This document shows positions 3,994-61,849 of a stretch of 64,000 nt of DNA, one piece after another. The notes under the pieces are model-generated. The model was given only the letters and a program-made list of their open reading frames with translations. It was not told the origin of the DNA and did not search any database. The stretch lies in the IMG/VR virus record IMGVR_UViG_3300037419_001523; one strand, 5' to 3'. Position 1 is the first letter of the stretch; every line of letters begins with the position of its first letter. Made by a program: the position numbers and the translations under genes. The DNA is from an uncultured virus (IMG/VR IMGVR_UViG_3300037419_001523). Lineage: Duplodnaviria > Heunggongvirae > Uroviricota > Caudoviricetes.

Positions 3994-4230
3994 TAAAAAT
4001 CACCTCCACTGAACCAACATTTAACATTATAACTGATAGTGAGGTGAATATAAATGATTCCTTAATTTAACAAATAAAAGAGGTGAAGTTGTTGCGTCCT
4101 TGGACAAAAATGCGTCGTAAATTAATAGTATCATATTGTGCAGATTTTACTTAAATAAAGAAACGAAAAAGGACTCTTTAATCGGAGTCCTTTCGCATGT
4201 TAAAACATATTTTTTATCATGTTTTTTGAA

Positions 4231-4296
4231 CAAAAAAAGAGAACCGCACAAGGTTGAGTTGGTTCAAGTGCAAAGTTCTCTGACTATCTCTAGCCA
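4231..4296 (-). ncRNA. Candidate ~65-nt antisense sRNA upstream of the lysis cassette
   Basis: Minus-strand sigA promoter TTTACA-17-(TG)TATACT at 4302-4330; GAGAAC...GTTCTC stem followed by a T7 tract; no ORF. Confidence 0.55.
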
Positions 4297-4353
4297 CTTT
4301 AAGTATATCAAACTTTTAAGGTGGTGTAAACAAAAATAATTAAAATTTAGGAG

Positions 4354-4770
4354 TTGATTCTGTTGATGGAAGAAGAACTATATCAGAAAGTTGCGGTTTT
4401 AGAAAATACGGTTGATAAACATTCGAAATTATTAGATAAACAGCAAGAGCGAAATGATGTTCAAACGGAATTAAATACATTAACAAAAGTTTTTATTGAA
4501 GAAAGTAAAGAAACTAGAAAACAACTTCAAAAGTTTTCAGAAACGATTGATAGAGTTAATGAAAACCTCACACATTTAAATATCAGTCATCAACAAATGA
4601 AACAAGATATGAACGAAATTGGTAGTCGTGTTTCAGATATCGAAAAAGGACAAGAGGAAAGCAAAATTGATCCTAACGCTTTATTTAAAAGTATTTTAAG
4701 CTACGTTATGACTGGTATTGGTTCAATAGCTATAGCTTTAATTATCTACTTACTGACTGAAGGTAAATAA
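4354..4770 (+). CDS. Coiled-coil protein with C-terminal TM helix (XhlA/BhlA-like lysis accessory)
   Basis: Heptad-rich body, single C-terminal TM, immediately before the endolysin. Confidence 0.6.
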   Translation: MILLMEEELYQKVAVLENTVDKHSKLLDKQQERNDVQTELNTLTKVFIEESKETRKQLQKFSETIDRVNENLTHLNISHQQMKQDMNEIGSRVSDIEKGQEESKIDPNALFKSILSYVMTGIGSIAIALIIYLLTEGK

Positions 4771-4801
4771 AATTAATCTAACAAAATAGGAGGAGTTTTA
4801 A

Positions 4802-5566
4802 ATGAATATTTCTCAAGTTGGAATTGATTTAATCAAAAAATTTGAAGGTTGTATTTTACATGCTTATAAGGATGCTGTGGGAGTTCCTACAATTGGATAT
4901 GGTCATACAGGTGGAGTAATTGCAAATCAGACAATCACTCAAGCAGAAGCAGATACCTTACTACGACATGACTTAGATAAATTTGAAGATGGAGTTATGA
5001 ATTTAGTAAAAGTACCGATTAATCAGAATCAATTTGATGCTTTAGTTTCTTTTAGTTTCAATTTAGGATTAGGTAATCTTGGTAACTCTACCCTTCTCAA
5101 ATATGTAAATGCGAAGAATTTTACTGCGGCAGCAAAAGAATTTGCAAAGTGGAATAAAGCAGGTGGAGAAGTATTGGATGGTTTAACTAAGCGTAGGGCT
5201 GCTGAGGCTGCTTTGTTTTCTAAACCTGTACCATCTGCTCCAAAAGCACCTGTAAAAAATGGTTGGATTAAGAATAATCAATCTCAATGGAATTACTATG
5301 TAAATTCAGTTATCCAAAAAGATCGTTGGATTCAGGATAAGGGACATTGGTATTATTTAGAAGGTACAGTAATGAAAGCTAGTTCATGGGTCAAATACAA
5401 GGAAAAATGGTATCATCTTGGAAAATCAGGAGCAATGGATATTGGTTGGATTGAGGATAAAGGTAAAAAATATTTCCTTAACGCTAAAGGGGAAATGGTT
5501 GTAGGTAAGCAAACTATCAATGGTAAAGAATATACATTTGATAAAAGTGGTGCATTAGTTCAATAA
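4802..5566 (+). CDS. Endolysin: GH24 lysozyme plus cell-wall-binding repeats
   Basis: FEG...YKDAVGVPTIGYGHT catalytic region; C-terminal GW...WYY-type repeats. Confidence 0.92.
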   Translation: MNISQVGIDLIKKFEGCILHAYKDAVGVPTIGYGHTGGVIANQTITQAEADTLLRHDLDKFEDGVMNLVKVPINQNQFDALVSFSFNLGLGNLGNSTLLKYVNAKNFTAAAKEFAKWNKAGGEVLDGLTKRRAAEAALFSKPVPSAPKAPVKNGWIKNNQSQWNYYVNSVIQKDRWIQDKGHWYYLEGTVMKASSWVKYKEKWYHLGKSGAMDIGWIEDKGKKYFLNAKGEMVVGKQTINGKEYTFDKSGALVQ

Positions 5567-5595
5567 AAAATAATCAAATAAAGGAGTGTTAACAA

Positions 5596-9641: not shown

Positions 9642-9701
9642 TACTGTCACTCCTTGTACATAACAATTTTTCTTGTTGTAGACATTGTAACATAAAAAAG
9701 A

Positions 9702-10430: not shown

Positions 10431-10730
10431 CGAATCACTCCTTTATCAAATTAATTACTATTTAAACTTTATATTTAATTTTGTTAACATCTTCTCTTAT
10501 TTCTTGTAGTTGTTTTAGAATTGATTCTAACAGAATTAACATCCTAATTTCTGTTTTATCGCTCATAATAACCCTCCTTATTTTCTAATAAAATATAACT
10601 TTTAAATACCTAGTAATAGTACCTACTACTAATTTTCCTCTGATTTATTCTTCCACAATCCAGCAGCAACACCTAATACAATTCCGACCATTACTAAAAT
10701 TTCATATGTATATGTATCCATTCGATTTAC

Positions 10731-13796: not shown

Positions 13797-13863
13797 TCTC
13801 CTTTTAAAATAGGGAGAGAAATGAATCCCTCCCATTAATGTTATTTCTAATAAAAGTGTTATT

Positions 13864-14382
13864 TTACTTGTTTAATTGACGTTCAATTTCAGCTTTTAAC
13901 TTTGGTTCAGGTGCAAAGTTTTCTTCCCAATGAGGAGGTTTAGCAATCTTACCGTCACCTTCTCTAAAACGTGGTTTGCCATCTTCCCACAATTTACCCA
14001 TATTAGCATCTTGAACGATTTTGAATAAGTTAAATGGTTCTACACCTAGGATAGTAAATGATCCTTGATTGAAATATTCAACGTCAATTAATGCATCTGC
14101 TTGTGAAACAATAATGTTATCAATAGGGTCTTTTTTATCGACAATTTTTACATAAGCAGCATCTAGTCCTTGAATAAAATCACTGAAAAGGTTGCGAAAT
14201 TTTTCTAAGTCACCACCGACTGTAGCATATAAGAATTCAACTAATTCTTCACCTGTCCATACTGCACGATTTAACGCTGTTACTTCATCAATTGGAGTTG
14301 GTTTGTCAGAATATTTATGATTAAATGCTTTATGAAAATCTTTAACCATGTAGTACATTTCGTTTTGTTGTTTGTTAGTCAT
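13864..14382 (-). CDS. MazG-like NTP pyrophosphohydrolase (PRA-PH-like)
   Basis: VKDFHKAF, EELVE, ADALID, ANMGK, DGKIAKP motifs. Confidence 0.8.
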   Translation of the reverse strand: MTNKQQNEMYYMVKDFHKAFNHKYSDKPTPIDEVTALNRAVWTGEELVEFLYATVGGDLEKFRNLFSDFIQGLDAAYVKIVDKKDPIDNIIVSQADALIDVEYFNQGSFTILGVEPFNLFKIVQDANMGKLWEDGKPRFREGDGKIAKPPHWEENFAPEPKLKAEIERQLNK

Positions 14383-20080: not shown

Positions 20081-21905
20081 TCAGTTGTTTTCATCTTTGA
20101 ATAGTTCCTTCATAACATCCACTAATTTTCTATACTTTTCATTTTCTTTGTTTACGATTTCAAAGGCTTTTTCTAATCGACTTAGCTTGGAATCATCCAC
20201 ATCCCTTTCTTTGTTTTCCTCATCAACTGGCTTTAACATTAAATCATTCTTTCTCCATTCTTCTTGTTCTTCTTTTGAATCAAACATATCGGAATTGAAG
20301 TCTTCTTCATCTTCGTCATAACTGAAATTTAATCCATAATCTTCTGTAGGAGCATCAGTTTTAAAAACACTGTTAGTAACCATAGCGTTTTTCACATTAT
20401 TTCCTATTTGAAGTGCAGTTTCACCTTGTGCGGTTTGTACACTAATACCGTTAATATGAATATTTGAAATAGATACATCCATGTTTTTTAATAATTCAGC
20501 CAAGCTATTAACGGTTTTTGTTAATTCGATTGCTACTTCTAATCTTTTATCTTCATGTGTTTCAATTAAAATTTTACTTGCTTTATTTTCCATTATTTTA
20601 AATCCCCTTTTGAATTTATTTATTATATTCTTTTTCCTCAATTGCTCACAAATCTAATTCCTTAATTACCTTCTGAACCGACTTTTTATGTAAATCCTTA
20701 ACCATCTTAATGCGATTATCCAATTCATCAATGTGATCCTTATGTCCACTAAACTCTACCTTTTCCTTTTCATCCGACAATTGCAACGTCCATACATCAT
20801 TAACAAATTCGTTACACTTGAAACAAGTTCTATTTATCATCTTGTGATTCCCATTGGATATTTTCTTGTTTTACTACTTTAACAATTGTTTTCTCAATCT
20901 CATTCAGTCTGTCCAAAACATTATGTATTGTTTCTAATTTATCATCTGAAACAATTAATTCCTTCATATATTGAAATAAAGCACTTCGCAATGACAGTCC
21001 ATGAAATCCAATTATTTCCCAAGATGACTTTGTACCACCTTCTTTTTTATTCTTAATGGTCTGAAGCTGCTCCAATTGGATGTTTTGACGAGAGGAATCA
21101 AGTGTTAATTTGTGATTATCATCTAACTGCAATAACATATTCTCACCACCTAGATTTGAATGTATGGAATTTATACGTTTTAGCATCAATACTACCTTCA
21201 TTTAAATCGTATCCGAACATCTCTGCAATTTCCCAACTTAATTCATCTCTAAAATCAAGTAAATTGTCTTTTGCTTTAGTATCCTTGATGGAATCTTTGC
21301 AAATAATGGATGTTTCAAGTAAGCATAAGAGTTTATGTAACTGGTCACTATTAAGTGTTAAATTGTTTTCTTTTTTCATTTCTTCGTCAATACGAGAATA
21401 TAAATCTTCACGAAGTTCCTCTAATTCTTGTAATTTATTTTCAACCTCAGATAATTGATCTTCAAATTCCTGTAACTTATTACCCATTTTCATTCTCCTT
21501 CAATTGTTTAATTTCGTTTTCAATTTTGATTATTTGTTTATGTAAAAGGGCTTTCTTTAATTCAAGTTGTATTAATTCAGTTTTCATTGCACAATTTATC
21601 ACTTCTTTCTTATGTAAAAGGTGACTGTGTTTGGAACAATCACCTTTATTTGATAATTTAATATTAAGTTATTTTTGTTTAATTGTCAATGCTAATTTTA
21701 TAGATTATGAGAAATAAATTTCCTCTGAAACTTGCCCGATTAAATAGAATATCTGATCTAACATTTTTTCGTAAACTCGCCATGTTTCTTCTGAGATATT
21801 TTCGTTTTCCTCGATGGAGTGATATAATGTACTAACTTCTGAATCTAGCTGCTTTATGTAATCGGATAAAACGCTTCTTTTAAATTCGCTTATGGTAGGT
21901 TTCAT
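20081..21905 (-). other. Run of small hypothetical genes (20081-20641, 20646-20840, 20830-21201, 21143-21493, 21705-21905)
   Basis: Closely packed co-oriented ORFs with RBSs; no recognisable motifs. Confidence 0.6.
21661..21689 (-). promoter_or_regulatory. sigA-type promoter with operator-like spacer
   Basis: TTGACA-ATTAAACAAAAATAACT-TAATAT. Confidence 0.7.
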
Positions 21906-23524: not shown

Positions 23525-23701
23525 TTCCTCACCCTTTGTTTGATTATTTTTACTAAGCGTTTTTCAAAATCTTGATTGCTTTTTTTAATTGTTCTGCAAA
23601 TTCACCATCTTCTTCTCCATCTAATTCACAGGAATAAAGCAATTGTTTTAATTCATCAATAACTAAATGCATTTTTCATTCCTCCTTTTAAAACCTGAAT
23701 T

Positions 23702-25630
23702 TTATATTTCAATCATCCAATCTCGGAATTCCATTTGTCGTTCATATCTTGCTTCAGCAACCTCTTTATCAGGAAGATACATAAAATGTTTATTCTGGAT
23801 GACTTGTCTCGTCTTGTGCAGGGTAATTAAGTTTAATTTAATTTCCACTAGATCATCAAGTGTTTTAGCACCTAATTCTTTCGCACATTGTATGTATAAC
23901 TTATTGTCGCTGTTTCGTGTTTCTGGATATTGTTCCAACACTCGCATCACTAACTTTTTTACGCTGTTTAGTTCTGAGTTTGTGTTCATATAACACCTAC
24001 TTTCCAACAATATAGTGCTTTTATTCTTCATCATCGTAAATATTAACTAATGGTTTGTCAGGATACTGTTCTTTGATTAAACTATTTATGTAATCATAGT
24101 CGTAATAACCAGCCAATTTTACCAGTTCTTCATAAGTCTTAAATCTTAAAGTGTCCCAAGAGCCTGTTTGTTTGTAATGCTCAAATACTTTTTGCTTCTC
24201 CTCTTCATTAATAATCACACCGTAACCATCTTCCATGAATCCGTCAGGTGGATATTTAAATGTTTTAACGACACTATCTAAGCAATCATCACACAAATCA
24301 AAATCCCAATGATCCATGTCAAATCTTGAACCATACCCAAATCCTAGACTAAAATTATGTATATCATTTGCAAACAAATCTTCGTCAGAATCGAACCAAT
24401 TGCCATTTTCCTTTAGTTCCCTGGATTCGCCACATTTATTACACGTGACAATCTTGGAAGTTATTACCTTTTCAACTTTCTTAACTTCTTTTTCTTCAAA
24501 ATTTTCTCTTCTCACTTACATTCCTCCTTTAAAAGAGTTGTTTTATTAGAAAAAGATTGTGAATTTCATTTTACAAACCTTGATATAACAACATTCCTAA
24601 AATTTTATTTTCACAATCTTTTTAGTTATATCAGTTTATTTACTTATCCCACAAATAATCGAACCACTCACAACATTCATTTAATTCTTCTTCACTAAGA
24701 TGAACAAATCTTGATATTTCACTTGGTTCTCCGAATAGTTCAGCACTTTCAATACAGAATTTAATTTTCTCATCTCTGGTCATTTTGTGTCGCCACCTTG
24801 TATACTATATTCAGTTTCAATAATTTCCTTAATCCGTTCCATAGCTTCATAAGGATTATTACTTTGTTCTATCGCATCAATAATCGTATCCCTGACGCCA
24901 TCATGTTCAATAACTTCTTCCCCATAGTTTTCACTAATCCAATTTTCAAAAATGCTTTGAGTATGTCTTGCTTTTTGATGGTAATTAGCTGATTTAATGA
25001 ACGCTTCTTGTATATATTTCGGGAATCTAACTTTTGTCACTTAAATCACCCTCTTTAATATTAATTATACATATTATACCAAACGTCCTTGTAGTTTGTC
25101 AGTATTAAGTTTTTTATTATTAATTTATAATAAAGCAGACTTTAAACATCTGCCTTATCATTTTCTTTAATGTATTGAATACCTTTGACTCTTCCACCAA
25201 TAGATTCTAAGAAATCAACTAATTTGTTAACATTTCCCTTTAATTCATTGACATCTAATTGACCAATATCTTCACCATCTTCTAGGAAACAATACAACTC
25301 ATCAAACTTTGTAGTTAATGCATCTAATACTTCTTCATTTGACTTTGGTTCTATGCTCATCCCCATCTGAATACCAAATAATACACCATCATCTATTGCT
25401 ATTTGCAATAAACCGTCCGTATCATCCCATGTATATGCATCCCAAAACTCATTTAATGACCTAAATCTCCCATTGTCCACTATTTGTGTTTTTAACCATT
25501 CTTCTGGTACTGTTACATAAGCACATTCTAATTTATCAAGATAGCAGTTTTCATCCCTATCTGTCCCAATCACATTATCTACATACGCTCCGAAAGTAAC
25601 TAGTTTCTCGTTTTCCATACCATGAACCAC
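23702..25630 (-). other. Small hypothetical genes (23702-24034, 24021-24515 Cys-rich, 24780-25040, 25142-25630)
   Basis: Co-oriented ORFs with RBSs; 24021-24515 has CxxC pairs. Confidence 0.6.
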
Positions 25631-27792: not shown

Positions 27793-28406
27793 TAAACATT
27801 TTCCTCCTCGACCACTTTAACTAATAATTTTTGTCTTCCAAAATCTAACGCTTCATTTACAGTGTCCATATATAAATCTATATGTCCTGATTTGATGGCT
27901 GATCCTCTGTCCTCACAGGTTCTTATTCCAACTCCTTGAATATCAACCTTTGTTCCAAATTCCATTGAAGGAGGGCAAGAAATCGTTCTACCCTCTTTAA
28001 CTTTAGTACCACTTGCTGTAATTCCATATCCTTTGTCACCTTTACGTTTTTGAGTTGATTCATATCCAGCCGAATAAGCTGTAACCTCAAAAACTTTCTT
28101 CGCCTCCTTCCTTTTATCTAATTCCTTTTTTATTTGATTATTTTCCTTTTTAACCTTATCCAATTCACTGTTTAAAAGGTCTATTTTATCTTTGAGTTGT
28201 ATAAGATCAATATCCTTTCGTTCTGTCAATTCGTGCAATTTATTGTTCTCTTGTGTCAATTGATACTTTGAAAATACCAGTTTATGAATATTGTTTTCTA
28301 ATTCGTTTGTATCTACTATGTACCTCGTACCAATTGTGACATTCACTAACAGACTAGTGATCAATCCAAAGTTGATAATATCTCTTTTATTAATCATAAG
28401 CGTCAC
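27792..28406 (-). CDS. 3D-domain cell-wall protein (YorM-like)
   Basis: N-terminal anchor, coiled coil, VTAYS...TASGT...EDRGSAIK..HIDLY 3D domain. Confidence 0.88.
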   Translation of the reverse strand: MTLMINKRDIINFGLITSLLVNVTIGTRYIVDTNELENNIHKLVFSKYQLTQENNKLHELTERKDIDLIQLKDKIDLLNSELDKVKKENNQIKKELDKRKEAKKVFEVTAYSAGYESTQKRKGDKGYGITASGTKVKEGRTISCPPSMEFGTKVDIQGVGIRTCEDRGSAIKSGHIDLYMDTVNEALDFGRQKLLVKVVEEENV

Positions 28407-39808: not shown

Positions 39809-41770
39809 TTAAAGTAATTCTTTTACTTTTTGTAACAATTCAATCAATTCATTAACTTGATCTTCATAAAGATATAAAAATTCTTTTGAGTTTCCGTTTT
39901 TACTTCGTATTAAATATTGATTTAATTGACTGAACGCTCCATCAATTGTACCTTCATGACTGACAGTAAACCAATCACTTCCGATTGTTTTTAACATTTA
40001 AGTATCACCCTTTAAAAGTATATTTTGAATGAATTACTTTTTATTATTTTCTTCTTGTTTCAATTCATTTTGGTATAGAATTTCCACACACTCGTTAAAT
40101 TCTTCAGCCGAAATAATTTTGTTTAATTGCATCTAATCACCTCCTGATAAAAGGAATTTTTTAAGTCACATTTTGTTCGTAAGACGACATTACCAATATA
40201 AATCTTCTTCGATTTCGTTCCAGTCATTTCCGAAAGTACAACCAACAATTTTGATACCTTTTGCGTGGTTGTGGTTTAAATTCTCGTCATAAGTCTTTTT
40301 GTAATATTCCAGTTTAGAATCAGCATTAACTATTGGATTGATGATAACTTCTGCTTCTGGAAAGCCCTGCATTTCAATTCTTACTGCCACAAATTTTGCG
40401 TTTTCTTTCTTTGCAAGTTGAAAACTGCGTTCTAAATTTTCCATTTTTATTTCAAACATAACTATCATTCTCCTTTTAATTTTTTACTTCGCCTTTTTTC
40501 TCAAATATGTATAATTTAAAACGCAAACCTAAACACTAATGTTTTCAATAATGTCATAGTAGTTAATATTGTAACTGGAATAAATGATTCACTCATACTA
40601 GGTAATTTCAATTGAGGTTCTATTTTCCTTTTTACATCTTCAACACTCATATGTACTGGTTCACCGTTTATTTTTACAGATAATTGTTGCTGCAGATTTT
40701 CTAATTTTGAATGTTCGATATGCAGTTGATTAACTAAATTAGTATTTGTTTCATTAAGATTATGTACAGTATGTTGTAATGAATCAATGTAATTACTTTG
40801 TTGCGAAACCTTTTCAACTAAGAAATGATAATGATCTAAAAAGTCTTTTATGAAGGATATAAGTAGGAATATTAGTATAAGTATGAATAACCATTTGAAA
40901 GCAGTTTTTAACGTTTTCCAAATTTTCCCCATTTCTCTCCAATCCTTTTTCATACTTCATCCTCTCCCTTATTAAGTCTGTGAGTACCATTTCAGCACCC
41001 ACAGACTATAAATCTATTATTGTCCTTGTGTTTGCTTTGTAAATTCTTGGTCAATTTGTTGCTTGAATGATGCTAAAACTGAGGCTTGAATGTCTTTGAT
41101 TTTTTGCTCCAAAGATAAGAACTCTGGAGTGTTTGTCAAATTATTTAATTTCATAGAATAATACTCTTTCATCAATCGTTCTAATTCTGCTTGTTGTGTG
41201 TCAACATCTGAAGCGATTGCTGTATTTATTTTCGTATTAACATCTGAATCAATATTTGATACCAAGTCATTCTTTGTGGAGTTCGCTGTTTGAAGTAATT
41301 CTGAATAAGAATTATTTATTGCGTTTGTTTCCCAATCCGTACCTGCTTTACCTATGATTGATCCTGCAAAGAACACTCCGCCTAACACTAAAACTCCTGC
41401 ACCAATTATTGATAACTTTTTCTTCATCTAAACTTCATCTCCTATTATGTGTATGTAGATTTATTTTTGATTAAATTATGTAATATCATGGTGTCTAGGA
41501 ATTAGTTTCTACAGCAGTAGGCAACACTCCTTTCAATTAAAAATTGGATTTTATACGACATTACCATCTTCTTTTGTGTTGTTTATCCCATCGTTTATTA
41601 AACTCTTTATGTCCTTTTATAACTTTAACAAATACAAAGATAATAAAGGATATAACTAGGATGAAGATTACTCCGAAAAAGATCAAATATCCAATTGCAA
41701 AAGGACTAATTGTATTCCACAACTCGCTAATTGGGGTGTTAAATATGTCTTTAATGGTCACTTTTTTCAC
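39809..41770 (-). other. Small hypothetical genes including membrane-anchored coiled-coil proteins (40516-40953, 41017-41427) and a TM protein (41561-41770)
   Basis: ORF track plus RBSs; N-terminal hydrophobic segments. Confidence 0.6.
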
Positions 41771-41828: not shown

Positions 41829-42056
41829 GAATTATTTTTTGTTCAAATACCTATCAGGAACATCATATAACCCTAATGTCTGTAATTCCAATAATAGCCT
41901 ATTGATAGCGTTAAATTCCTCACTGGTTATTCTTGTTTGCCTACATTCTCTATCTACCAAATCCTCAAGTATTTCACATTGCTTTTGAATGTCTTTATTA
42001 ACCATTTTCTAATCTCTCCCTTAAAATAACGTTTTTATTGGAATTTTATGTAATAA

Positions 42057-42789: not shown

Positions 42790-44394
42790 TTAATACCTAA
42801 CCCCATACATAGTGCCATTCATTTTCCTTACTTCTTCTACTTCTTCTGGAGTTATTTTGAAATAGTTACTAACTCCTTCTGGATTAAATATCAATTTACT
42901 AAATACTTTCTTTAATACTTCATATTCAAAACGATTCATTTCTACGCTATATGTAAGATTATCTGTGTTTCTGTTAATGTACATGTGCTCATCCTACTAA
43001 TCTTTATATATTAATTTCTTCATATAATGCATCAGTTCAATTTCAATGTTAGCCTTTCGTTCTCCCTGTTCTAGTAACATATCAACATGTATCTTTAATT
43101 GATCCTTACATGACTGTAAAATTTCTTCTTTGTTCATTTATTTCTCCTAATAATATATTTCTTTTATAATATTATTTCATCATGCCTATTTTCATCAGTA
43201 ATTTGTTCACATAATTCTTTCAATCTTCGTTCACTTATTTCTGTTAAAAGCGATAATACTTTATCATTAACATCAACTTTAATAAGTGATCCCTCATCCT
43301 CCACTTCAAGAATGATTCTATCTAATTCATTAAACAATCTAATTTTTGGCTCTTTTAACATATTAAACACTCCTTTTAAAATGAGAATTTTATTCGGTAC
43401 GTTTTTTATAATTTATCTTATTTTTAAAGTCTTGAAGTATATCAATCAGTGTATCTACCTGATTTTCCCTTAAACAGACTGAAACTAAAAACTGATGGTC
43501 TTGAAATGCCGAGAAATCAACGTTATTCGACTCTGGATTTGACTTTACTTCTAAATAGATACCTTTATGTGGCAATTCAAAACAACAAGGGAATTTCATT
43601 TCCATTTCGATCATCTCCTTAAATCCTTATAAAAGGGAAATTTTATCTACTATTTATCGTAAATGTATGTTACAACAGCACAGCCAGAATTAACTAATTC
43701 TACTGCATCATTAAGAGGTAACACCAATTCATCAAATTGTTTAAAAAAGGAATCATCATAAACACGCTCTTCGAGAAATCTTATTTCAACTTTCACGCTA
43801 TCACTCCTTAATAAAAGAGAATATTTATATATCAAATTTTGCTTGGATAAATAAATCAACTAATATTTCAAATCCATTATGAAAACAAGCGTCATTAGCA
43901 TATCTTTTAAGAAACTCTTCTTCCGAAAAACCATTCATTTTCATGATAATCTTCATAACTTGTTCCTTTGCTTGCTTTGTTAATTCGTAACTTGTAATAT
44001 AATTTGGCATCAACCACACCTCCTTAAAGTTAGATAAAATAGATTTTTTATTTTGAACAATCTTTACATATAAACTTTTTATTTCTATCGTCATACTTAG
44101 CTTCAACTGTGATTTTTTTCTTACATTTAAAGCAAAGTGTTAAAACTTTACCAAACCATTCCATTGATTTCACTCCTCTTCACAGACAGTATGTTCAGTC
44201 TAAATTTAAAAATTTCAATACAAAACTTCCGCATCTTCTAAATCAACATAATATTCATTGTCCTTGTGAACCACTTGAAACCCTTTGAAATTTTCAAAAT
44301 GGTATTCTATTACTTTAATCACCTTAAATTCTTCTCCAATTTTATCTTTATACCAATAACTATCCTTTGTACTGCGTGTGATTTTAATTTTCAT
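42790..44394 (-). other. Array of short hypothetical genes
   Basis: Several 50-95 aa co-oriented ORFs, many delimited by TAAAA-N6-TTTTA. Confidence 0.6.
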
Positions 44395-45166: not shown

Positions 45167-45819
45167 CTTCTTCAGATTTAATTAAATCGTTGAAGGCTGC
45201 ATTAAATGTGTTATATTGACTAATCTGTCCTTGGTTTTCATATTCAAAAATAGGAATATACTTTAATGTTTGTTCATCTTTATAACAATTTAACATAATA
45301 CTTTTTTCATCTAGTTCGATTAGTGACTCTCCAACATTTTCAATTTTATTACCGTTTACTTCTAAGTATTTTTCAAGTCCATCATTAATTAAGTTCTCAA
45401 ATTTTATTGTTGTTTTCATTTTTAACCCTCCATTTAATTATTTTTCTATTAAAATCAAAGTTTTATTCTCTATAATCATCGTAAATCTCGATAGATTGTA
45501 TTTCATCATTCCAAAAACACTTACCTATGATTAATTCTTGTTTAACTTCGTTCTGCAATTTTATTAAATCCTCAAGTGTTTCAATATCAATAAACCATGC
45601 TTCTTCCTCAAAATCTCGTTTTATGTAACCATCAACTACTCTATGGTTCATACCTTGTTTATACCAATTAGTTCTGTCTGAAGGGTGATTCAATTTAGAT
45701 GGATCATCTACTGTCCTTGTATCTACTCTCATATATTTATCTTTATATGCATTTTCATGAGGTTTAGTTTCAAATGAACTAGTATAACATGAAGTAGTGC
45801 TGGTGATGAAAAATTTCAT
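45144..45819 (-). other. Two hypothetical genes (45144-45419, 45463-45819)
   Basis: ORFs with GGAGG RBS; second ends EIYDDYRE. Confidence 0.6.
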
Positions 45820-46292
45820 TATTAAATTCCTCCTTTATAAAATTCACGATTTATTAAACAATTTTAAACAAAGTATCCATGTTAACACTCCAGCCACCCA
45901 AATAGGAACGAATACCATATCTTTTATGTACAAGTAATGACAACCTAACACTAAAAGCAAAACAAGCATTTGAATTACTAAGTAAAGAAATATTGCTGCA
46001 ACCACTTTTTCAAATGTTTTCAATTGATTACCTACTTTCAAAATGAAAGCTTTATTTTTTCTTTTCCCTCGTGTCTTTATAAACTGACCAGCAAAACCAT
46101 CCAAGTATTCCAATTGCAAATGCCAATCCAATACACCATTCAATTACTTTTAATGTAGCCCACAATTCCAACATTTTTAAATCACCTCCCAATTAATCCA
46201 ACTATCTACTATTTAATATTAACTTATTTTCGTTTAAAATGAAAGTATCAAGTCGAACATGACTTGAAAAAATTTTAAGGAGTGATACTTGT

Positions 46293-46478: not shown

Positions 46479-46481
46479 TCT

Positions 46482-47769: not shown

Positions 47770-47814
47770 CGTTTCTCTCCTTTTATTAGTTTATTTTCGT
47801 TTAAAATGTCAGTT

Positions 47815-49234
47815 TTATTGCCATCTGTAAATTTCATCATTTGATAATTTAACTTCGTTTCCGAATGGTGATATACCTATAAATATCGGTTTCCCTAAAA
47901 GTTGATGAAACTCAATTGTCTTACAAGTTGCAATCCTTAATGATCCATCAGATGTTAAATATTCAAACACTTTTCCTATATGTTTCATCTTTAAGCTCCT
48001 CATAAATTGGATGTTTTATCGTTCTTTAAACTTAGTACAAAGTGCTTCTTCTTTAACAATCGTACAGAAGTTTGTCATCATTCCTTCACCTAAGAATTCA
48101 GATTCCTTTTTCTCAGGTCTTCTTTTTAAAAATACCCAACCATCCCAAGCTTCTCTTAAACCCGATTTATACATATCATAATTTTTCATATCATCTGATT
48201 TATCATGATTACCTAATTCCTCATGATAAGCAGCGCTCCAATAAGCACATCCAACTTTACCCTCATGAGTCGTATATCTAGCATAATCACAGCTTAAACA
48301 ATTATTATTCACTCATTTTCCCTCCATTTAAAAGAAACTTTTTATTCTAATTCTTTTACTACCACAAGCACATCTCCATCTTCTGTTGTTGGATTTGCTA
48401 ATTCATCTCTAGTTATTTCATAATTTCTCCAATCAACTGTTTCATCTATCACCCTAACAGGTTCGTGTTTATAACTTGTTTTAGGAATATCATATCCAGT
48501 AAAAACAGCAGCGTTCTCTATGTAATATTTACCTTCATCATTACTAAAGAAAATTGCTACTTTTCTCCTCATAAACCCTTCTCCCCTCATAAAACAATCT
48601 TTTCATTCTGTAATTACATAACCTTCAATAATAGCAAAATGTTTTGTATGTAATCCACTAGATTTATCTACATCACATGATAAATGGAAATCATCGTATT
48701 TAAGATTATCAATTTTTACCGAATGATTTTTTGAAAATAAGAAACCTGTTTTAACCTTTTCAATAAACGATTCCCAACTTTCTTCCTCTTCTACATAAGA
48801 TTGATGATCCATAATTTTGTCATTTACAATTGATAAATTTGTTTTTATTACTTTAATCATTTTTAAATACCTCCTAAATTGACATAAAATCATTTCTCCA
48901 TGATTCCAGTTCCTTTTGCTGCTGTTCAATGTGTTCAAATAACTTGTATATGTCGTTCCTATGCCAAATTAATTCTGAATTATCACTGGATTCATCTATA
49001 TCTTCTTTAATTCTTAGCAACTCTTCTTTAGTTAACATGTTTAACCTCCTTTAAAACTTCACTGTTATGTCATGATTTGTTCATCAATTAAAATTCTTTT
49101 TCACTATCACAATTATTACAGCAAATAGTTATATCTCCATCGTAACTACTAGGAAATATTGATACATCGGTACTTCCGCACTTTTTACATTGAAGTAAAA
49201 ACAAGTCTTGTATTTCCTCTTTTGCATATCCCAT
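47815..49234 (-). other. Array of short hypothetical genes
   Basis: At least six 45-100 aa ORFs delimited by TAAAA-N6-TTTTA or variants. Confidence 0.6.
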
Positions 49235-49273
49235 AAAATCACTCCTTCTCCCTTTTCTTCTAAAATGCATCTT

Positions 49274-49954
49274 TTAATTAATTGTGCTTACCTTACCAAT
49301 AACTTTATCAAATTCAATTAATCTGCTAATCTCTGATCGCTTAATTTCTTCTAGTAATCTATTCTTAATCTCGTCAAATGTACTTGCAGCAAGACTTCTA
49401 TGTAAATCAAGATTCCATTCAGCAATTAAGTATTTAAGCAATCCTAATTTTTCCGGCAACAATCTATTAATAAAGTTAGACGATTTAAATAATAAATCTT
49501 TTTCTTGTCTGGTCATTCCTGCAAATATACTATAATTTGAAATATCAACTTCATTATCCAGAGTAAAATCAAGTTTTTCTTCATCACTCATCTCAAGTGC
49601 TAATCTTGCCTGACGCATAATCAGCCTTGATTTTTTAAGAACTTTACCATTAATATCTAACTCAACTGCAATTACTCCCCTACCATCAGTGCATACAAAC
49701 GCATATTCAATTTGAATACGTTCATGATTTTTTCTTAAATATGCTTTCTCTTTAATTCTTGTTAAGAGGGCTTGAGGTAATTTATGTAATCCAAATGCGA
49801 TATAATTAAATAAATTTTGATTAACTTTTAACAAAGGAAGTTGATCCATAAGCTGAACATTGTCGCTTTTATTCCATTCGTGAAAGTGTGGAATTAAATT
49901 TAAATTCTCCTCATCTTCGAAAAAATTAACCCAAATATCGTGTAAATAACGCAT
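49274..49954 (-). CDS. DUF3603 / YjbA (MdfA)-like protein
   Basis: YLHDIWVNFF..EEN...HFHEW.K.D...LMDQLPLL, AYLRKNHER, TDG, KKSRLI.RQ match B. subtilis YjbA as I recall it. Confidence 0.85.
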   Translation of the reverse strand: MRYLHDIWVNFFEDEENLNLIPHFHEWNKSDNVQLMDQLPLLKVNQNLFNYIAFGLHKLPQALLTRIKEKAYLRKNHERIQIEYAFVCTDGRGVIAVELDINGKVLKKSRLIMRQARLALEMSDEEKLDFTLDNEVDISNYSIFAGMTRQEKDLLFKSSNFINRLLPEKLGLLKYLIAEWNLDLHRSLAASTFDEIKNRLLEEIKRSEISRLIEFDKVIGKVSTIN

Positions 49955-50453: not shown

Positions 50454-50565
50454 TATTAAAACTCAAAATTATTTCTAATAAATGACAAATTTTATTTAAA
50501 ATAAAAAACATTCACCTCAACTACAGTTTTCTGCTCATCTTGGCGAATGTTCAATCGTGTTATCC

Positions 50566-53265: not shown

Positions 53266-53271
53266 AAGTAA

Positions 53272-53308
53272 GCTAGGTCTTAGGATTTGTTTCCTTTGAC
53301 CTAGTTTT
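53272..53308 (+). terminator. Intrinsic terminator
   Basis: CTAGGTC..AGGA...TCCT..GACCTAG-TTTT. Confidence 0.7.
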
Positions 53309-54556: not shown

Positions 54557-54587
54557 CTCTATTCACCCTAATTAATTATTTAATTTC

Positions 54588-55967: not shown

Positions 55968-56071
55968 ATTTATACTTACTTTAATAATAAGATTTTTAGT
56001 ACATTTTGTAAATAATTATTTTCGTTTAATTGAGTCAATTGCTACGTTTATTCTTCACAAAGTTTTGTATT

Positions 56072-57109
56072 TTATTTCCCCTTCATAACTTCCTGTATCT
56101 TCATATTAAGTATCAATTGTAAATCCTTCTTACACATTGATATAGCTTGTAATAGTGTATCTTGATCCACTTTCTTATACAATTCCATATCTAAATTCCC
56201 TTTAGATGAAACTGCACCGATTAGTCCATAATCTTCATTCTCTAAATAAATCTGTGTAGTTGAAACTGATGAATGATTAGCTGCACGTTTAGCCTCTAAA
56301 ATGTCTCCTGTAATGCGATAACGGAATGTTACTCCGGTCTTTCTTATACTATGGAAGACAATGTTACGATCAGATGAGATTCCTATTTTAGTTTTCAATC
56401 GTTTAAAAGTATCATTTAGACTATCTGAAGAAATGTCGAATACTTTGTCGTCATCTTTTTTAATTGTTAATAACTCTTTATAGAAATCATGTGAAATTAA
56501 TTGTCTCATTTCTTTATTACCTTTATCAGTAACCTTAATCATTACTCCTTCATCACGTTCTAAAAAGTCACTCCATTTCAAGTTAAGAAGGGCATTTTTA
56601 CGTATACAACTATCTAAGGCTAAAAGAATTAAAAGTCTTTTAATTTCACCCTTCTCTCGTTCTTCTAGAGCAAGATTCGCCATCTGTAATACCTCATCCA
56701 CAGATAAAACACCGTATGAGTTTTTAGCCTCTGGCAATGAATCAATCAATTCCATATAAGAAACATCATCCACTATCTTTTTTCCTGCAAGATATCTTAA
56801 AACCCCCCTGACAGCACTAACTTTCCTGTTTATTGTCTTATTTGAATATATTCGATTTCCTTCGTCATCTATTGCTTTATATAACCTCTCAATAAAATCT
56901 TCGAAATCATCGAGTGTTATCTGTACATCTTCTCTTGTTAGGTATTGAATTTCTTTTTCTTTAATCAACTTAAAGAATAACATAATATCTTTTCTATAAG
57001 CCTCTTCCGTACAATTTGAATTATAACTGTGTTTAGTTAAATATTTTTTAATCTGATCATATACCTTTGTGTTATCCAACTTAACTAACTTATGAGCGTT
57101 TGCGTTCAT
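56072..57109 (-). CDS. Tyrosine recombinase (YopP/SroD-like)
   Basis: SAM-like N-domain; catalytic R (CIRK), K (DKGNK), HSIR, H (ANHSS), Y (TQIY). Confidence 0.9.
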   Translation of the reverse strand: MNANAHKLVKLDNTKVYDQIKKYLTKHSYNSNCTEEAYRKDIMLFFKLIKEKEIQYLTREDVQITLDDFEDFIERLYKAIDDEGNRIYSNKTINRKVSAVRGVLRYLAGKKIVDDVSYMELIDSLPEAKNSYGVLSVDEVLQMANLALEEREKGEIKRLLILLALDSCIRKNALLNLKWSDFLERDEGVMIKVTDKGNKEMRQLISHDFYKELLTIKKDDDKVFDISSDSLNDTFKRLKTKIGISSDRNIVFHSIRKTGVTFRYRITGDILEAKRAANHSSVSTTQIYLENEDYGLIGAVSSKGNLDMELYKKVDQDTLLQAISMCKKDLQLILNMKIQEVMKGK

Positions 57110-57250
57110 TTAAACCACCCCTCTCAATTTTTGTTGTAGTAATTTTTCTATCTGTTTAATTTCGTTTAATTCTTTCTTGATTTGAAACTCATTCATTTTC
57201 CGCACGTTTCGCTTGTAGTAGCCTAACAAATCTGTAAGCACTCTGATCAT
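57110..57250 (-). CDS. 46-aa hypothetical protein (not in the ORF track)
   Basis: AAGGGAG RBS; stop abuts the recombinase start. Confidence 0.55.
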   Translation of the reverse strand: MIRVLTDLLGYYKRNVRKMNEFQIKKELNEIKQIEKLLQQKLRGVV

Positions 57251-57434
57251 CTCCCTTCTTTACTATCTTATTTGTAGTTATTAATATTTATAACCTTTTA
57301 TCTATATATCTATTCTTAAATGTTTGATTAAGTTTGTTTATATTCATATTATACAACTATTAGTTTTCGTTGTAAAGAACAATTTGCATAAAAAATAGAG
57401 ATATTTTAAAAAATATCCCCATAAAAAGTGACTT

Positions 57435-58066
57435 TTAATTGTATATCTCAGTCTCAAATATAACTTCATTTGGTAATAATCCTTCTTTTTGAACCCAGTA
57501 ACCCATATAAGGATACTGTTTAGGGAAAACTCTATGCCAAGTGCCACCTTTATGTCTTCTATAAGACTTTAATTTAGATAAGTAATATTCAATTGTAAAA
57601 GTTAAATGCTCATATAACCAATACATTTATTAATCCTCCCACAATTTTGTGTCATATTCTCCTCGTTCAAGATTCCCAATCCAAATTCTTAACTCTCTAA
57701 TTTGCCCTAACTCTGTATGTAATCCTCCAGCAAAATCACGATCATTTCTATTTTCAAGTGATTTTAAGCGTTCCTTCATATTATGCAGTAGAGACTTTTT
57801 ATCAACTATATTCATATGTATTACTCCCCTTGTTTTGAATATTTTCCTTTACCTAAATAAGCGTTCCAATATTCATTAATTACTGGAAAAATTACAGTTG
57901 AATAAAAAGCGTACTGTTTCAAAAATTCACCTTTATCTGTTTGAACTAATCCTCCTGACCACTTCTCAACTTCTTTTTGATACTTTTCATATGCTTCATT
58001 AAATTCTTCATCAGTATTTTTCTTTTTATATTCTTTTAGTTTATCAATAATTTGATCAATCTCCAT
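57435..58066 (-). other. Three short hypothetical genes
   Basis: ORF track 57435-57626, 57630-57815, 57821-58066. Confidence 0.6.
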
Positions 58067-58093
58067 TATTATTCCTCCCTTAAAATCTACTTA

Positions 58094-58777
58094 TTATTGG
58101 ATTTTTATTATTATGTATGACTTATAATCCTCATTTAACCACTTGTAAATTTTCTGTAATCTTTCATAAGAGTAAACAGTACACCACAATTCATTATTTG
58201 GTTTATACCAATCCTTAAGAACCTTGTTATGCTTACTTGTATTACAACTCTTACAAGCTGGAACGCAATTGGATAAATCATTGGAACCATTATGGTCTAC
58301 ATGATCTCTATGGAAGTCTCCTAATTGTGTTTTTCCTCTGAAAACTATGTAGTGTTCTTCAATTTTTAAATCACAATACGCACATCTATAATTGAAGTAA
58401 TTCTTACAGTTTTCCCATTCTTTAGTGGTAATTTTATGTTCTTTGTTCATCTGTCTATCTTTAAACTGCTCATTTAATTTATCTTTGTTTTTTCTTTGCC
58501 ATTCTTTTTGTTTACCGTTATCTCTTCTTTTCTTAGAATTTCTTCTATCCATTTCAATTCGCCATTCAGCATTTTTAAGGTAATAATGTATTCTTTCTTT
58601 ATATTTCTCTGGATTGTCTTTCATCCATTGACTGTATCGTTGCTTTGTGCAAACTTTACATTCAGGATTATAATAAATCCATTCTCCTCGTTTCTTGCTT
58701 TGTTTCTTTTGTGAATAGAACTCAGTTAGTGGTTTTATTTCGTTGCAAACAGAACACGATTTACTTTCGATTTCCAT
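58094..58777 (-). CDS. HNH endonuclease
   Basis: CAYC...DHV...N...N.VPACKSCNTSK; N-terminal CxxC zinc finger. Confidence 0.88.
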   Translation of the reverse strand: MEIESKSCSVCNEIKPLTEFYSQKKQSKKRGEWIYYNPECKVCTKQRYSQWMKDNPEKYKERIHYYLKNAEWRIEMDRRNSKKRRDNGKQKEWQRKNKDKLNEQFKDRQMNKEHKITTKEWENCKNYFNYRCAYCDLKIEEHYIVFRGKTQLGDFHRDHVDHNGSNDLSNCVPACKSCNTSKHNKVLKDWYKPNNELWCTVYSYERLQKIYKWLNEDYKSYIIIKIQ

Positions 58778-58810
58778 ATACCAACCTCCTTTTAAGTTAA
58801 AAGAATCATT

Positions 58811-60941
58811 TTACCAGAACAAAAATCTTTTTCTGTTTATTATTTTCTCTGACTCAATTTTAGATTGTTCTGTTAATTTATCTTCGACTATTTTCACAAA
58901 ATCAGTATAATAATTAACACTTCCATCTAAATTTCTTGCCCTGTTATTAATATTTAGAGGCATGTTAGAAACATCTAGTTTTACTTTTTCGCCAAGTCCC
59001 AATAATGAATTAGGTATTTCTGCTTTTTCAATAAGAAAATAATCAACAAACTCATTAGTTTTATATAATTTAGGTTTACTGAAACAAGAAACTCCATACT
59101 TAACTCTTTTTTTAATCCCATAAAAATACGCATTATGTTTTTCCATTTTCTTAACTCCACTCCTTTGAAACTGATATTTTATTTCTTTGTAGCAACTTTA
59201 TACCACTGATCAATCAAATCTCTTCTGTCATTCTCAGCATTCAATAACTCACTTGCAAAATCAAACTTAGCCATTTTATATCCTTCTATATATTTATTTT
59301 TGTTTTGATTCTGCAATTCTGTGATTGTTCTTAGTAAAAACGGAACTGAATCAGCGACTTTACAAGGTAAATCAATATCTAAAAATTCACCTTCATATGC
59401 TGCTGAATATTTGTTATATTGCTTTTGTATCTTTGTTAACTTTACATCTAAACCTTCCATTAGTTAATCCTCCTCGTAATCTCTATTTTTCTTAATCCAA
59501 TCATACAGACGAGCAATAAAACTAATCTCCCCAAAATTAGCTATGTAAGCTGCGTTGTTTAAATAGTCTTCACGCTTTATGAGTTCCTTCTGCTCTTCAC
59601 AGATTTTTTCATATTCATCGAACATAAAATTTTCAATTTCTTTGAAAGTTCTATTCCTAATCGTAGGTAACTCGACCTTTTCTTTAGGTTTTATTCGTGA
59701 TGGTTTAATTGTTGCTATTACTTCCTCTTGTAAAGGTTCTTTTAGAGTTATTGGAGTTGTTTTCATGTTCAGATACCCAAACTTAACCTCACCCTTTACT
59801 ACTTCTAAAATGTCATTTATTAAGTGTTTAAGAATAAAATCATAATGCTGCTTATTTAGGAAATTGATATTTAATTTTCCACGTTCATCTTCAATGAAAA
59901 ACAATGAATAAAATTCACCGGAATAATTAATCTTTTCTGCAAATATTTGAGTTAGATTTTGAAATATTTCTTCCTTGTCCATATTGATCACCTTTATGTA
60001 TTATACATTGTTGTAAACAGGAAATAAAACTAACTTTTTATTTTAATTCTAGTGATTCTTTTGCTACCCTTGAACAAGTCTTTCCAAGCATATCAATACC
60101 ACCATACTCAGCAATTTCCTTCAATGATTTTTCATAACGTTCATTAGTTTCTATGTGCCACTCAAGACAACCGTTTAACTCCTTTATTACATTTTCCTTT
60201 TGTTCAATCTTCTTCTTTATTTCATAATTCTCTATCAATACTTTTTCCCGATGTTCAGTAATTTTATCAAGCAAATCTCCAAGTTGTTCGTTTTCTTGTT
60301 CTAAACGTTCAACTTTTTTATCTAAATCCATCAAATGAATACATAAGCAATCATATAAATATCTATCAGTGTGATATAAAATTTTAAGTGTTTCATTTAA
60401 TTCTGATTCAGTCATTTTTTCTCCTCCATCATCAAAGAAAATTTATCATCTTCACTAAATCCTCTTGGTTCATCAAATTCCTCGAATTCAATTTCTCTTA
60501 AATATGTTACATGCACTTTATTATCAGTTAAGGATTCTTCATACACAATCCAACCATCTGATTCCATTTCTTCATTACCTTGTTTTCTCTCTTTACTTGA
60601 GTTGTACCAAGCCTTTATCATTTCTACATATCCTTGATAAGTAATATTCATTTAATTCCTCCATTAAAATTTAGTTTTTATTTCAAATCAAAGTATTCAA
60701 TAAATTCATCAATTGTGACAACATAAGCTACCAATCCTGTAACACCTTCATTCATCTTTCCTTCGTTCACCAATGGTTGCACAACAAATTCAAGATCGTT
60801 ACTATTTAATCTTCTAACAAATTCTGTGACAACCCATGTATCGTTTAAACTAAACATAAAAGATACTGCGTTATCAGGTTTCTTATTGGCTTTTAACTTT
60901 GTTTGCCATAATTGAACTTCGTTTGCTTCGAATTTATTCAT
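58811..60941 (-). other. Array of six short hypothetical genes
   Basis: Co-oriented ORFs delimited by TAAAA-N6-TTTTA. Confidence 0.6.
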
Positions 60942-60971
60942 ACTCTCACCTCATAAAAGTTAATTTTTATT

Positions 60972-61343
60972 TTATTTTAATAACTCTCGATTTTCGTATA
61001 TATTTCCAATTACTTTCCCATTTACTGCTTCTTTCATATTAAGATGATCTTCTTCATCCCCTTTAGGATCATGACAGTAAAAACCTGAATACTCATCATC
61101 CCATTTTATTATTAAAGGGTATTCTCCGTAACTATCACCTATAATAATGTCTCCTTCATAAATTTCCTTACCGTTTTTATCTCTCAATCCTGTAAATAGC
61201 ATCAAATCATATCTGTTATCACCAATTGTTAAAATAGATGGTGGATTAACTGAAGCTGATACTGGAACTTCTGATAGTTGTTGATTATGATCAGCCCATC
61301 TATTTTCTTGTTTATCCCAAGTTCTATATTTAATTTCCCTCAT
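60972..61343 (-). CDS. yopX: YopX family protein
   Basis: MREIKYRTWD...FTGLRDKNGKEIYEGDII...VIGNIYEN. Confidence 0.92.
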   Translation of the reverse strand: MREIKYRTWDKQENRWADHNQQLSEVPVSASVNPPSILTIGDNRYDLMLFTGLRDKNGKEIYEGDIIIGDSYGEYPLIIKWDDEYSGFYCHDPKGDEEDHLNMKEAVNGKVIGNIYENRELLK

Positions 61344-61495
61344 TATTCTCCATCCTTTTTGTTAATTTCATATTTATCCTTTACATAATCCTCACCGTTA
61401 CAATGTGGAAGTTTTATATTTTTACAAAAACTATAGAAGAAACAAGTTTCACACATTTCATCCATTAACTATAATCCTCCTTTAAAACCTTCGTT

Positions 61496-61849
61496 TTATG
61501 TTAAATATACTTGATAAATTATTCCTTCTTTATCTGGATATAATTCATAATATAGTTTTAAGTCTTGTTCAGAATACTTTCTAACAAGGTAATAATAATT
61601 TCTATGAATAGGCATTCTATGATGGTTTATAATATCTTCATACACAGATTCTTCGAATCCAATTGGACTGTTTCTTTTTATGATCTTATATTGATTCAAT
61701 ATCATTTGAGCATCTTCAAATGTAACATCTGAATTGTGTTCATATTGTAATTCCTCAAACAATATTTTACTTGTATATTCAGTAAGTATTGCTTCACCAA
61801 TTTCAAATCTCAAATTTTCACCTCCAGTACACTGAATGAATTTCTTCAT
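61496..61849 (-). CDS. Hypothetical protein
   Basis: 117-aa ORF whose stop lies in the junction motif. Confidence 0.55.
   Translation of the reverse strand: MKKFIQCTGGENLRFEIGEAILTEYTSKILFEELQYEHNSDVTFEDAQMILNQYKIIKRNSPIGFEESVYEDIINHHRMPIHRNYYYLVRKYSEQDLKLYYELYPDKEGIIYQVYLT

Follow-up and report, generated by a model that had tools for sequence, protein, structure and literature searches.

The mosaicism of phage genomes is usually attributed to random illegitimate recombination and subsequent selection. In their modular theory Susskind and Botstein are said to have proposed that short conserved sequences between modules serve as linkers that direct recombination in register; to our knowledge, explicit linker sequences of this kind have rarely been found. 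The core sites of Xer/dif, Cre/lox and Flp/FRT consist of inverted arms around an asymmetric centre of 6–8 bp, exchange being expected only between sites with matching centres, and heterospecific lox or FRT pairs are used for cassette exchange. The attC sites of integrons are imperfect palindromes of ~57–141 bp with R''/L''-L'/R' boxes. In T4-type phages, recombination between copies of promoter-early stem-loops (PeSLs) is reported to shuffle, delete and replace genes (Arbiol et al. 2010, PMC2839356), and in Acinetobacter plasmids the dyad sites of pdif/dif modules are reported to flank accessory genes, with modules present in different replicons (Mindlin et al. 2019, PMC6449649). Here we describe a 16-bp dyad, TAAAA-N6-TTTTA, that recurs at gene ends in a 64,000-nucleotide stretch of DNA from an uncultured virus of the Caudoviricetes (IMG/VR IMGVR_UViG_3300037419_001523), referred to below as the window. 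The window corresponds to the early arm of an SPbeta-like prophage in reversed orientation, and its DNA polymerase gene shares ~72% DNA identity with yorL of Bacillus phage SPbeta. From sequence comparison we propose, with a probability of roughly 0.55, that the dyad sites serve SPbeta-like phages as conserved joints for the exchange of gene modules, with recombination focused on them.

The motif occurs in 23 exact copies in the window, compared with a mean of 1.91 copies in 100 dinucleotide-preserving shuffles, none of which held more than five (0/100 reached 23). When the two arms were set apart by N0 to N15, N6 gave the 23 copies and each other spacing gave 0–3; swapped or direct arrangements of the arms gave 0–8. 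The spacing control leaves base composition, stop codons and the surroundings of the junctions unchanged, so AT richness at gene ends does not explain the enrichment. This N6-specific enrichment is decisive for the motif as it had been put forward in a first-pass annotation of the window made from the letters alone. All 20 exact copies given there are present, and three more had been overlooked (21867 and 28173 inside open reading frames [ORFs], 41538 at a gene junction). Twelve variants had been described as carrying one or two mismatches, which is correct for nine with one and two with two (42769, 46235) and incorrect for that at 26619, which has three. One-mismatch matches number 33 in the window, roughly equal to the ~35 that a hand estimate gives for chance, and 15 of the 33 fall at minus-strand gene junctions.

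The same strict spacing is found across the family. SPbeta carries 34 exact N6 copies against 0–4 at other spacings. The motif was present in 29 of 33 related IMG/VR loci, which were collected as relatives by a DNA polymerase search, and the 33 loci summed gave 139 copies for N6, compared with 10 for N4, 2 for N5, 7 for N7 and 4 for N8. Five distant complete genomes (150–180 kb) held 5–12 copies each against 1–5 in a backwards control. The flanks in SPbeta extend the dyad weakly (tYtrrA-TAAAA-N6-TTTTA-wwYARA), and flank positions +4 to +6 in the window read GRA.

Placement of the sites is tied to gene ends, where 21 of the 23 exact copies in the window are located (Table 1). Of the 23, 13 begin with three bases that are also the TAA stop codon of the gene upstream, among them all 12 coordinates for which the first-pass annotation had claimed a stop codon inside the site. 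That annotation further described the sites as lying just before the next ribosome-binding site (RBS). Of the exact sites, 17 end 12–42 nt ahead of the next start and the other six 60–380 nt ahead of it, and what comes directly after several of them is no RBS but a terminator-like hairpin (13851, 57422) or, at 60025, a promoter-like sequence. The constant feature is therefore the end of the upstream gene. The sites are spread across several operons, each with its own promoter. Among the small genes at 39.8–51.2 kb an exact copy lies at 10 of 31 junctions and a one-mismatch copy at 8 more; the corresponding figures for the small genes at 57.3–64 kb are 5 of 17 and 2 more. The junctions of the replication block (28.5–39.8 kb), at which no sites had been noticed before, indeed carry no exact site (0/8), and a single one-mismatch match was found there at 39810.

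The six-base centres behave as labels of position. No centre occurred twice within a sequence among 391 exact sites in 57 sequences. SPbeta and phi3T have 22 centres in common, all of them collinear, and over the 64 sequence pairs with at least four shared centres 1166 pairwise centre orders were concordant and none discordant. Collinearity alone is expected from synteny; the recurrence of the same 16-mer between unrelated genes goes beyond it. Among 60,466 cross-sequence site pairs we found 235 with the same centre in the same orientation and no flank similarity (scored as any 8-mer similarity within 300 bp of either flank), compared with 23 in a reverse-orientation control, and of the 220 such pairs with sufficient flank, 123 lacked any tblastx match (E 1e-3) in the 600 bp to the left and to the right. 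The 16-mer of window site 49261 (GATGCA) is identical in SPbeta (86074) and in seven IMG/VR loci, none of which has tblastx-detectable flank homology to the window, and the 16-mer of site 13851 recurs with different flanks in loci L025, L056 and L057.

Left and right flanks reassort combinatorially around unchanged 16-mers (centres GGATGA, TATCTC, AGACTG and GATGCA), and in alignments around GGATGA, TATCTC, AGACTG and ACGATA the neighbours reassort freely and divergence begins at the edge of the 16-mer. Site pairs that are homologous on one flank only (164) have the same centre in 118 cases, centres that differ by 1–2 bases in 22 and entirely different centres in 24. Retention is equal whether the left flank (59/85) or the right flank (59/79) is the homologous one, so the site belongs to the position and not to one neighbour gene. 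Between SPbeta and phi3T, an exact site is no more than 15 bp away from 11 of 79 ends of high-scoring segment pairs, where 0.92 would be expected for random positions. Replacement of cassettes runs precisely from one site to its neighbour; the cassette between the sites centred TATCTC and GATCAA, for instance, is yorT in SPbeta and a methylase gene in phi3T. A 16-bp island (centre TGCATA) is retained amid several kilobases without other homology, and a site common to SPbeta (69424) and phi3T (62423) stands isolated in non-homologous surroundings. At SPbeta site 116415, homology to SPbeta stops at the last base of the site in seven phages. Metagenome contigs from four independent runs were compared over window positions 41500–61499, and of the 44 contig ends or joints listed, 10 lie no more than 12 nt from an exact or near-exact junction site (2.1 expected, p ~4e-5) and five lie at exact sites (0–11 nt; 41527, 41553, 42039, 43646 and 44052; 1.3 expected, p = 0.01). 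The first-pass proposal that accessory genes are gained, lost or shuffled as cassettes is upheld insofar as neighbours are replaced and homology ends at site edges in relatives; the integron label that came with it is unsupported.

Two further differences were seen in these contigs. Runs X7 and X9 both contain a backward joint from window position 57166 to 48306 with an identical insert of 19 letters; the nearest exact sites are 256 and 23 nt away from the two ends of the joint, which suggests a relative with another gene order, or a circular or tandem form. In contigs of two runs, 429 bases (53555–53985) inside the gene for the homologue of the master repressor MrpR are skipped or replaced, which suggests alternative repressor alleles in the population.

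The site upstream of yorE (SPbeta 99498 versus phi3T 89340 and L015 2572) is centred TGATAA in four sequences and has the reverse complement, TTATCA, in four others; the centre follows the right flank, whatever the reassorted left flank. The centre has thus undergone a minute inversion inside an otherwise collinear region. An apparent inverted extra copy in L010 (17406) was rejected as a chance one-mismatch match inside a cytosine-methylase motif.

The pattern of exchange is read from sequence comparison, and the reaction that we infer behind it would run as follows. The dyad would act as an inter-gene linker at or after the stop codon and usually before the next RBS, so that RBS, ORF and stop would together make up a self-contained unit. 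The retention of identical arms family-wide leads us to infer one phage-encoded reader protein, which would recognise them on duplex DNA at ~20–35 places per genome, with a different asymmetric 6-base centre in each copy. Recombination would take place between copies of matching centre in two related genomes, the left part of one genome becoming joined to the right part of the other. Register would be preserved in this way even between non-homologous neighbour genes, and accessory genes would be reassorted with gene order kept. The arm–centre–arm layout and the presence of a YopP-like recombinase in every genome tested make this recombinase, tentatively, the most likely enzyme; alternatively, a protein other than a recombinase might bind the arms and exchange might proceed through annealing of the 16 identical bases. 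A same-centre rule would account for the individual centre at each position, the absence of repeats within a genome and the in-register nature of the exchange.

A more specific version of this proposal is an "addressed" cassette exchange, in which a YopP/SroD-like or YomM-like recombinase would bind the universal arms and recombine matching centres only. We consider it possible rather than probable. If it is true, the ~20–35 differently centred sites of a genome would act like heterospecific lox sites, and co-resident phages or prophages could swap non-homologous genes in register with no within-genome deletions. Our leading candidate for the enzyme, put forward tentatively, is the orphan YopP-like tyrosine recombinase encoded at 56072–57109. 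Aligned to XerA (5hxy), this protein keeps the complete catalytic set of Arg, Lys, His-x-x-Arg, His and Tyr, and the sites have the layout of tyrosine-recombinase core sites, with inverted arms around an asymmetric 6-bp centre. All ten near-complete relatives examined (10/10) encode a YopP-like homologue, which in one of them is split; its co-occurrence with the motif is therefore uninformative. The SPbeta literature consulted lists yopP among the core genes and as likely to be transcribed in lysogens, with no more than an XerC-type domain assignment. The YopQ-like DndB/ParB-type protein encoded at 54588–55967 might bind the arms instead.

In contig G006, to which locus L015 belongs, the YopP-like match at 60603–61492 runs in two frames (210 + 157 aa), and the recombinase there is possibly broken. 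The G006/L015 locus holds 10 dyad sites in 24 kb despite the split gene.

Several observations weigh against the sites as joints of module exchange. Only 2 of the 23 window centres are common to other sequences in the same orientation, compared with three in reverse, the low number reflecting that no close relative was available: neither megablast of window positions 40–62 kb against the phage collection nor protein scans with YopP-like and YopQ-like queries (viral_contigs, genome_contigs) returned any, and scans with the DNA polymerase and with 46507–47769 yielded relatives of at most 72% identity, plus an identical 8.6-kb fragment (L004). The window's close relatives are seen only as short, low-depth contigs, and two of the joints have just 27 letters on the short side. 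Many of the loci are close relatives or overlapping pieces of one contig, and the pair counts given above are therefore inflated relative to the events behind them. Where orthologous pairs have diverged, conservation is no higher in the centre (0.865) than in the flanks (0.87–0.92; n = 37 non-independent pairs), so that no added constraint on the centres is apparent. The 5-bp arms are short for a recombinase, and the 24 one-flank pairs with different centres are not predicted by a strict same-centre rule. Measured against other intergenic gaps, breakpoints between SPbeta and phi3T show a modest excess at sites, being present at 11 of 23 junctions with a site and 20 of 94 without (odds ratio [OR] 3.4, p = 0.016), and when gaps are restricted to at least 16 nt the figures are 11 of 23 and 20 of 66 (OR 2.1, p = 0.14); 20 breakpoint junctions thus lack an exact site. 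Among laboratory hybrids of phi3Ts and SPbeta, the hybrid-phage preprint places 15 of 16 junctions in long homology and reports a single non-homologous one, "following yosA". Both mapped crossovers of Hyb2phi3Ts-SPbeta fall in parent-identical stretches of 1.4 and 4.9 kb and are therefore uninformative about the sites.

Among the alternatives, the one that survives best is a regulatory or architectural DNA site, whose two arms, one helical turn apart, would be bound at gene borders by a dimeric phage protein; we regard it as unlikely, though a serious contender. Such a site could be a roadblock, a silencer or a clamp-loading site that silences lytic genes, and possible binders are the ParB/DndB-like YopQ homologue encoded in the lysogeny operon and a helix-turn-helix protein of the Xre type. 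Half-sites separated by N6, conserved in sequence and not in pairing, fit a dimer on duplex DNA, as does the weak extended dyad in the outer flanks of SPbeta. Exchange would then be a by-product of 16 bases identical by descent, with occasional annealing-type events. The lack of centre conservation above that of the flanks and the predominance of general homologous recombination in laboratory hybrids agree with this, yet 16 bases are short for homology-driven exchange and the flanks have been reassorted repeatedly. Exact centres moreover persist between phages with 56–70% identical DNA polymerases and unrelated flanks. The dyad has no known regulator, and a position within operons beside stop codons is odd for an operator. 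The exact motif string was met, in the literature searched, only for an archaeal transcriptional regulator, and repressor boxes often directly adjoin the sites in SPbeta and phi3T, which favours regulation.

SPBRE, an operator already described for these phages, is a different element. It belongs to the master repressor MrpR of SPbeta, for which ten peaks in promoter regions, and not dyad sites, are reported from chromatin affinity precipitation sequencing (ChAP-seq; PMC10516654). The box common to the regions upstream of the ten ChAP-seq target genes (9/10) is asymmetric, differs from the dyad and overlaps −35/−10, and the SroF repressor box of phi3T, as given in bioRxiv 10.1101/2025.11.27.690993, differs from the dyad as well. 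With both boxes different, the identification of the dyad with SPBRE, the MrpR operator, was rejected. SPBRE resembles the dyad in being repeated in SPbeta-like phages, where it often adjoins dyad sites, and its reader MrpR has a tyrosine-recombinase fold. Unlike the dyad, it is an asymmetric box of 15–26 bp over early promoters that differs between SPbeta and phi3T, whereas the dyad is symmetric, has identical arms in all phages and is ~3x as numerous. We did not find the dyad described in the literature on SPbeta, its relatives, SPBRE or the YonO promoter, or by motif string, in a search that did not cover the 1999 SPbeta genome paper.

With up to two mismatches, the phi3T repressor box (GAATAAAAATAAAAT core) occurs 39 times in phi3T, 17 times in SPbeta and in three weak copies in the window. 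It often directly adjoins a dyad site (phi3T, L059–L061; SPbeta, L001–L003), and the site centred CTAATA is accompanied by an SPBRE-like box in SPbeta and by phi3T's own box in phi3T. The MrpR homologue of the window (53561–54556) is not the binder of the dyad, and its own operator is likely a different repeat. At least seven promoter-like sequences in the window carry a second repeat, TTAAAGATAAATAA / TTAAACAAAAATAA, between their −35-like and −10-like hexamers, with additional upstream copies at 11.21 and 39.80 kb. It is probably the counterpart of SPBRE in the window phage, that is, the operator of this MrpR homologue. The dyad itself was rejected as a promoter, since the promoter-like sequences of the window lie elsewhere and have this repeat of their own.

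A signal at the RNA level is an improbable explanation, according to which a protein or nuclease would recognise UAAAA-N6-UUUUA in polycistronic early mRNAs and so set termination–reinitiation, translation or processing between cistrons. Overlap with the stop codon in 13 of 23 sites, the usual 12–42 nt to the next start and transcription of the sites within operons whose promoters lie elsewhere would suit such a signal, but RNA would have no need of a strict dyad of the DNA type with its centre free to vary, the sequence after some sites is a terminator-like hairpin or a promoter and not an RBS, and the centres common to unrelated contexts would go unexplained. RNA folding of eight sites gave 0 to −3.3 kcal/mol, with arm-to-arm pairing in three of the eight; three of eight stayed unfolded at a minimum free energy of 0, and compensatory arm variants showed no enrichment. 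With weak folds, no covariation, and conservation of sequence and not of pairing, a pairing-conserved hairpin was rejected. The first-pass annotation had dismissed a hairpin on the ground that the spacer is variable, which is faulty logic since the arms are complementary, although the conclusion is roughly right given the folding energies.

A true integron, in which an IntI-like integrase would insert circular cassettes via folded single-stranded attC-like sites, is very improbable. The comparison is invited by small promoterless ORFs that share one orientation and have a site, in some cases with the stop codon inside it, at their end, but the 16-bp TAAAA/TTTTA sites are without attC architecture and there is no IntI/attI/Pc platform, the only tyrosine-recombinase-type proteins of the window being the YopP-like Xer-type protein of the lysogeny operon and the MrpR homologue. 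The centre stays with the position (59 left-only and 59 right-only pairs), and no site-to-site circle junction was seen in the short metagenome contigs. The integron-like label is thus dropped for sites that lie in several operons with their own promoters and are not tied to a gene. A compositional artefact of AT-rich junctions (TAA stop, A-rich stretch, T-rich leader), to which ~30% GC and the three of ten fixed bases supplied by TAA might point, has next to no chance of being right and is rejected by the spacing control, by the shuffles and by the recurrence of the same pattern in SPbeta and the 33 loci.

Pfam matches of the window proteins reproduce the content of the SPbeta early arm in reverse orientation. 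Besides the genes in Table 1 they include three N6/N4 methylases, the replication block, ribonucleotide reductase, ThyA, DHFR and a RecU-like resolvase; the lysis genes are on the opposite strand. The adjacent minus-strand genes 12592–13173 and 13170–13835 encode sigma-70-like proteins (region 2 and region 4 matches); the SPbeta annotation table, unlike the window with its two sigma-70-like genes, contains no sigma factor. GC content of the window is ~30%, and the public runs that contain this stretch are soil and rhizosphere metagenomes.

Table 1 Dyad sites and other features of the window, in window coordinates unless stated otherwise.
Feature	Position	Strand	Context or basis
Exact site, centre CATATT (+ strand)	4201..4216	.	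divergent intergenic region 3993-4354
Exact site	10589..10604	-	intergenic 10430-10731; RBS 13 nt further
Exact site, centre TAACAC (gene strand)	13851..13866	-	TAA stop of gene 13864-14382; terminator-like hairpin next
Exact match, probably chance or relic	21867..21882	-	inside ORF 21705-21905
Exact site	23689..23704	-	stop of gene 23702-24034; RBS 3 nt later
Exact site	24530..24545	-	14 nt ahead of gene 24021-24515
Exact match, probably chance	28173..28188	-	inside ORF 27792-28406 (3D-domain protein)
Exact site	40148..40163	-	junction 39997-40190
Exact site	41538..41553	-	junction 41427-41561; metagenome contig breaks 41527, 41553
Exact site	42022..42037	-	junction 42005-42057; metagenome contig divergence 42039
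Exact site	43377..43392	-	stop of gene 43390-43614
Exact site	43630..43645	-	junction 43614-43650; contig joint from 43646, next small ORF skipped
Exact site	44035..44050	-	junction 44013-44048; contig divergence 44052
Exact site	45450..45465	-	stop of gene 45463-45819
Exact site	47802..47817	-	stop of gene 47815-48003
Exact site	48329..48344	-	stop of gene 48342-48590
Exact site, centre GATGCA (gene strand)	49261..49276	-	stop of gene 49274-49954
Exact site	57422..57437	-	stop of gene 57435-57626; hairpin-like stretch next, not RBS
Exact site	58798..58813	-	stop of gene 58811-59146
Exact site	60025..60040	-	stop of gene 60038-60415; promoter-like TTTACA-N17-TATAAT, then RBS
Exact site	60665..60680	-	stop of gene 60678-60941
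Exact site	60954..60969	-	2 nt past stop of YopX-family gene 60972-61343
Exact site	61483..61498	-	stop of gene 61496-61849
One-mismatch junction copy, TGA stop replacing TAA	20043..20058	-	
One-mismatch junction copy	40013..40028	-	
One-mismatch junction copy	45838..45853	-	
One-mismatch junction copy	48003..48018	-	contig joint at 48008
One-mismatch junction copy, TGA stop	48590..48605	-	
One-mismatch junction copy	49052..49067	-	
One-mismatch junction copy	50479..50494	-	contig joint at 50474
One-mismatch junction copy	58081..58096	-	
One-mismatch junction copy	59166..59181	-	contig divergence 59189
TTAAAGATAAATAA / TTAAACAAAAATAA repeat	near 11.18-11.22, 21.67, 28.47, 32.49, 39.77-39.80, 41.81, 50.43 kb	-	promoter-like sequences
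Large serine recombinase	7917-9650		Pfam
3D-domain protein ORF	27792-28406		Pfam
AimR-type arbitrium receptor homologues, two	51661-52860 and 62831-63973	-	Pfam
MrpR (YopR/SroF) master-repressor homologue	53561-54556	-	Pfam
YopQ-like DndB/ParB-type protein	54588-55967	-	Pfam
YopP-like tyrosine recombinase	56072-57109	-	Pfam Phage_integrase + SAM-like N domain
YopX-family gene	60972-61343	-	Pfam
Hyb2 identical stretches	17649-19052 and 27189-32083 of L062		within 40.8 kb

A strict and countable linker across a family that includes SPbeta, a Bacillus subtilis model phage open to genetic work, makes the old linker idea directly testable. If a dedicated recombinase reads the sites, they would represent a new natural form of in-register gene exchange and would supply orthogonal recombination sites ready for use. 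If none does, the dyad sites would still reveal a DNA-binding function at ~30 places in a well-studied phage.

Comparison with the systems introduced above places the dyad between several of them. The linker hypothesis was general and rarely borne out by sequence, whereas the dyad linkers are explicit, strict and countable. Like the dyad units, the attC cassettes of integrons are promoterless ORFs in one orientation whose recombination site can overlap the stop; unlike them, they have attC structure and an IntI/attI/Pc platform, and the site belongs to the gene. PeSLs are likewise short conserved elements between small non-essential genes that border insertions, deletions and replacements in related phages. 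They contain a strong sigma70-like promoter and a terminator stem-loop and recombine by ordinary homology, while the dyad, at 16 bp, has no promoter, no stable hairpin and individual centres, and no mini-circles were seen. The pdif modules also have multiple recombinase-type dyads flanking accessory genes; these are mutually similar 28-bp Xer sites served by the host XerC/XerD, in contrast to the shorter, collinear and individually centred dyads carried by phages of different hosts. In having many sites with different centres per genome the dyad is like heterospecific lox/FRT sites, and it is unlike lox, FRT or dif in having 5 strictly conserved arm bases and in its one-flank pairs with differing centres (24/164). 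No natural system is known to us in which a genome carries ~30 sites with different centres. The closest systems in function are PeSLs and the dif modules of Acinetobacter, and the closest in form are recombinase core sites with heterospecific centres.

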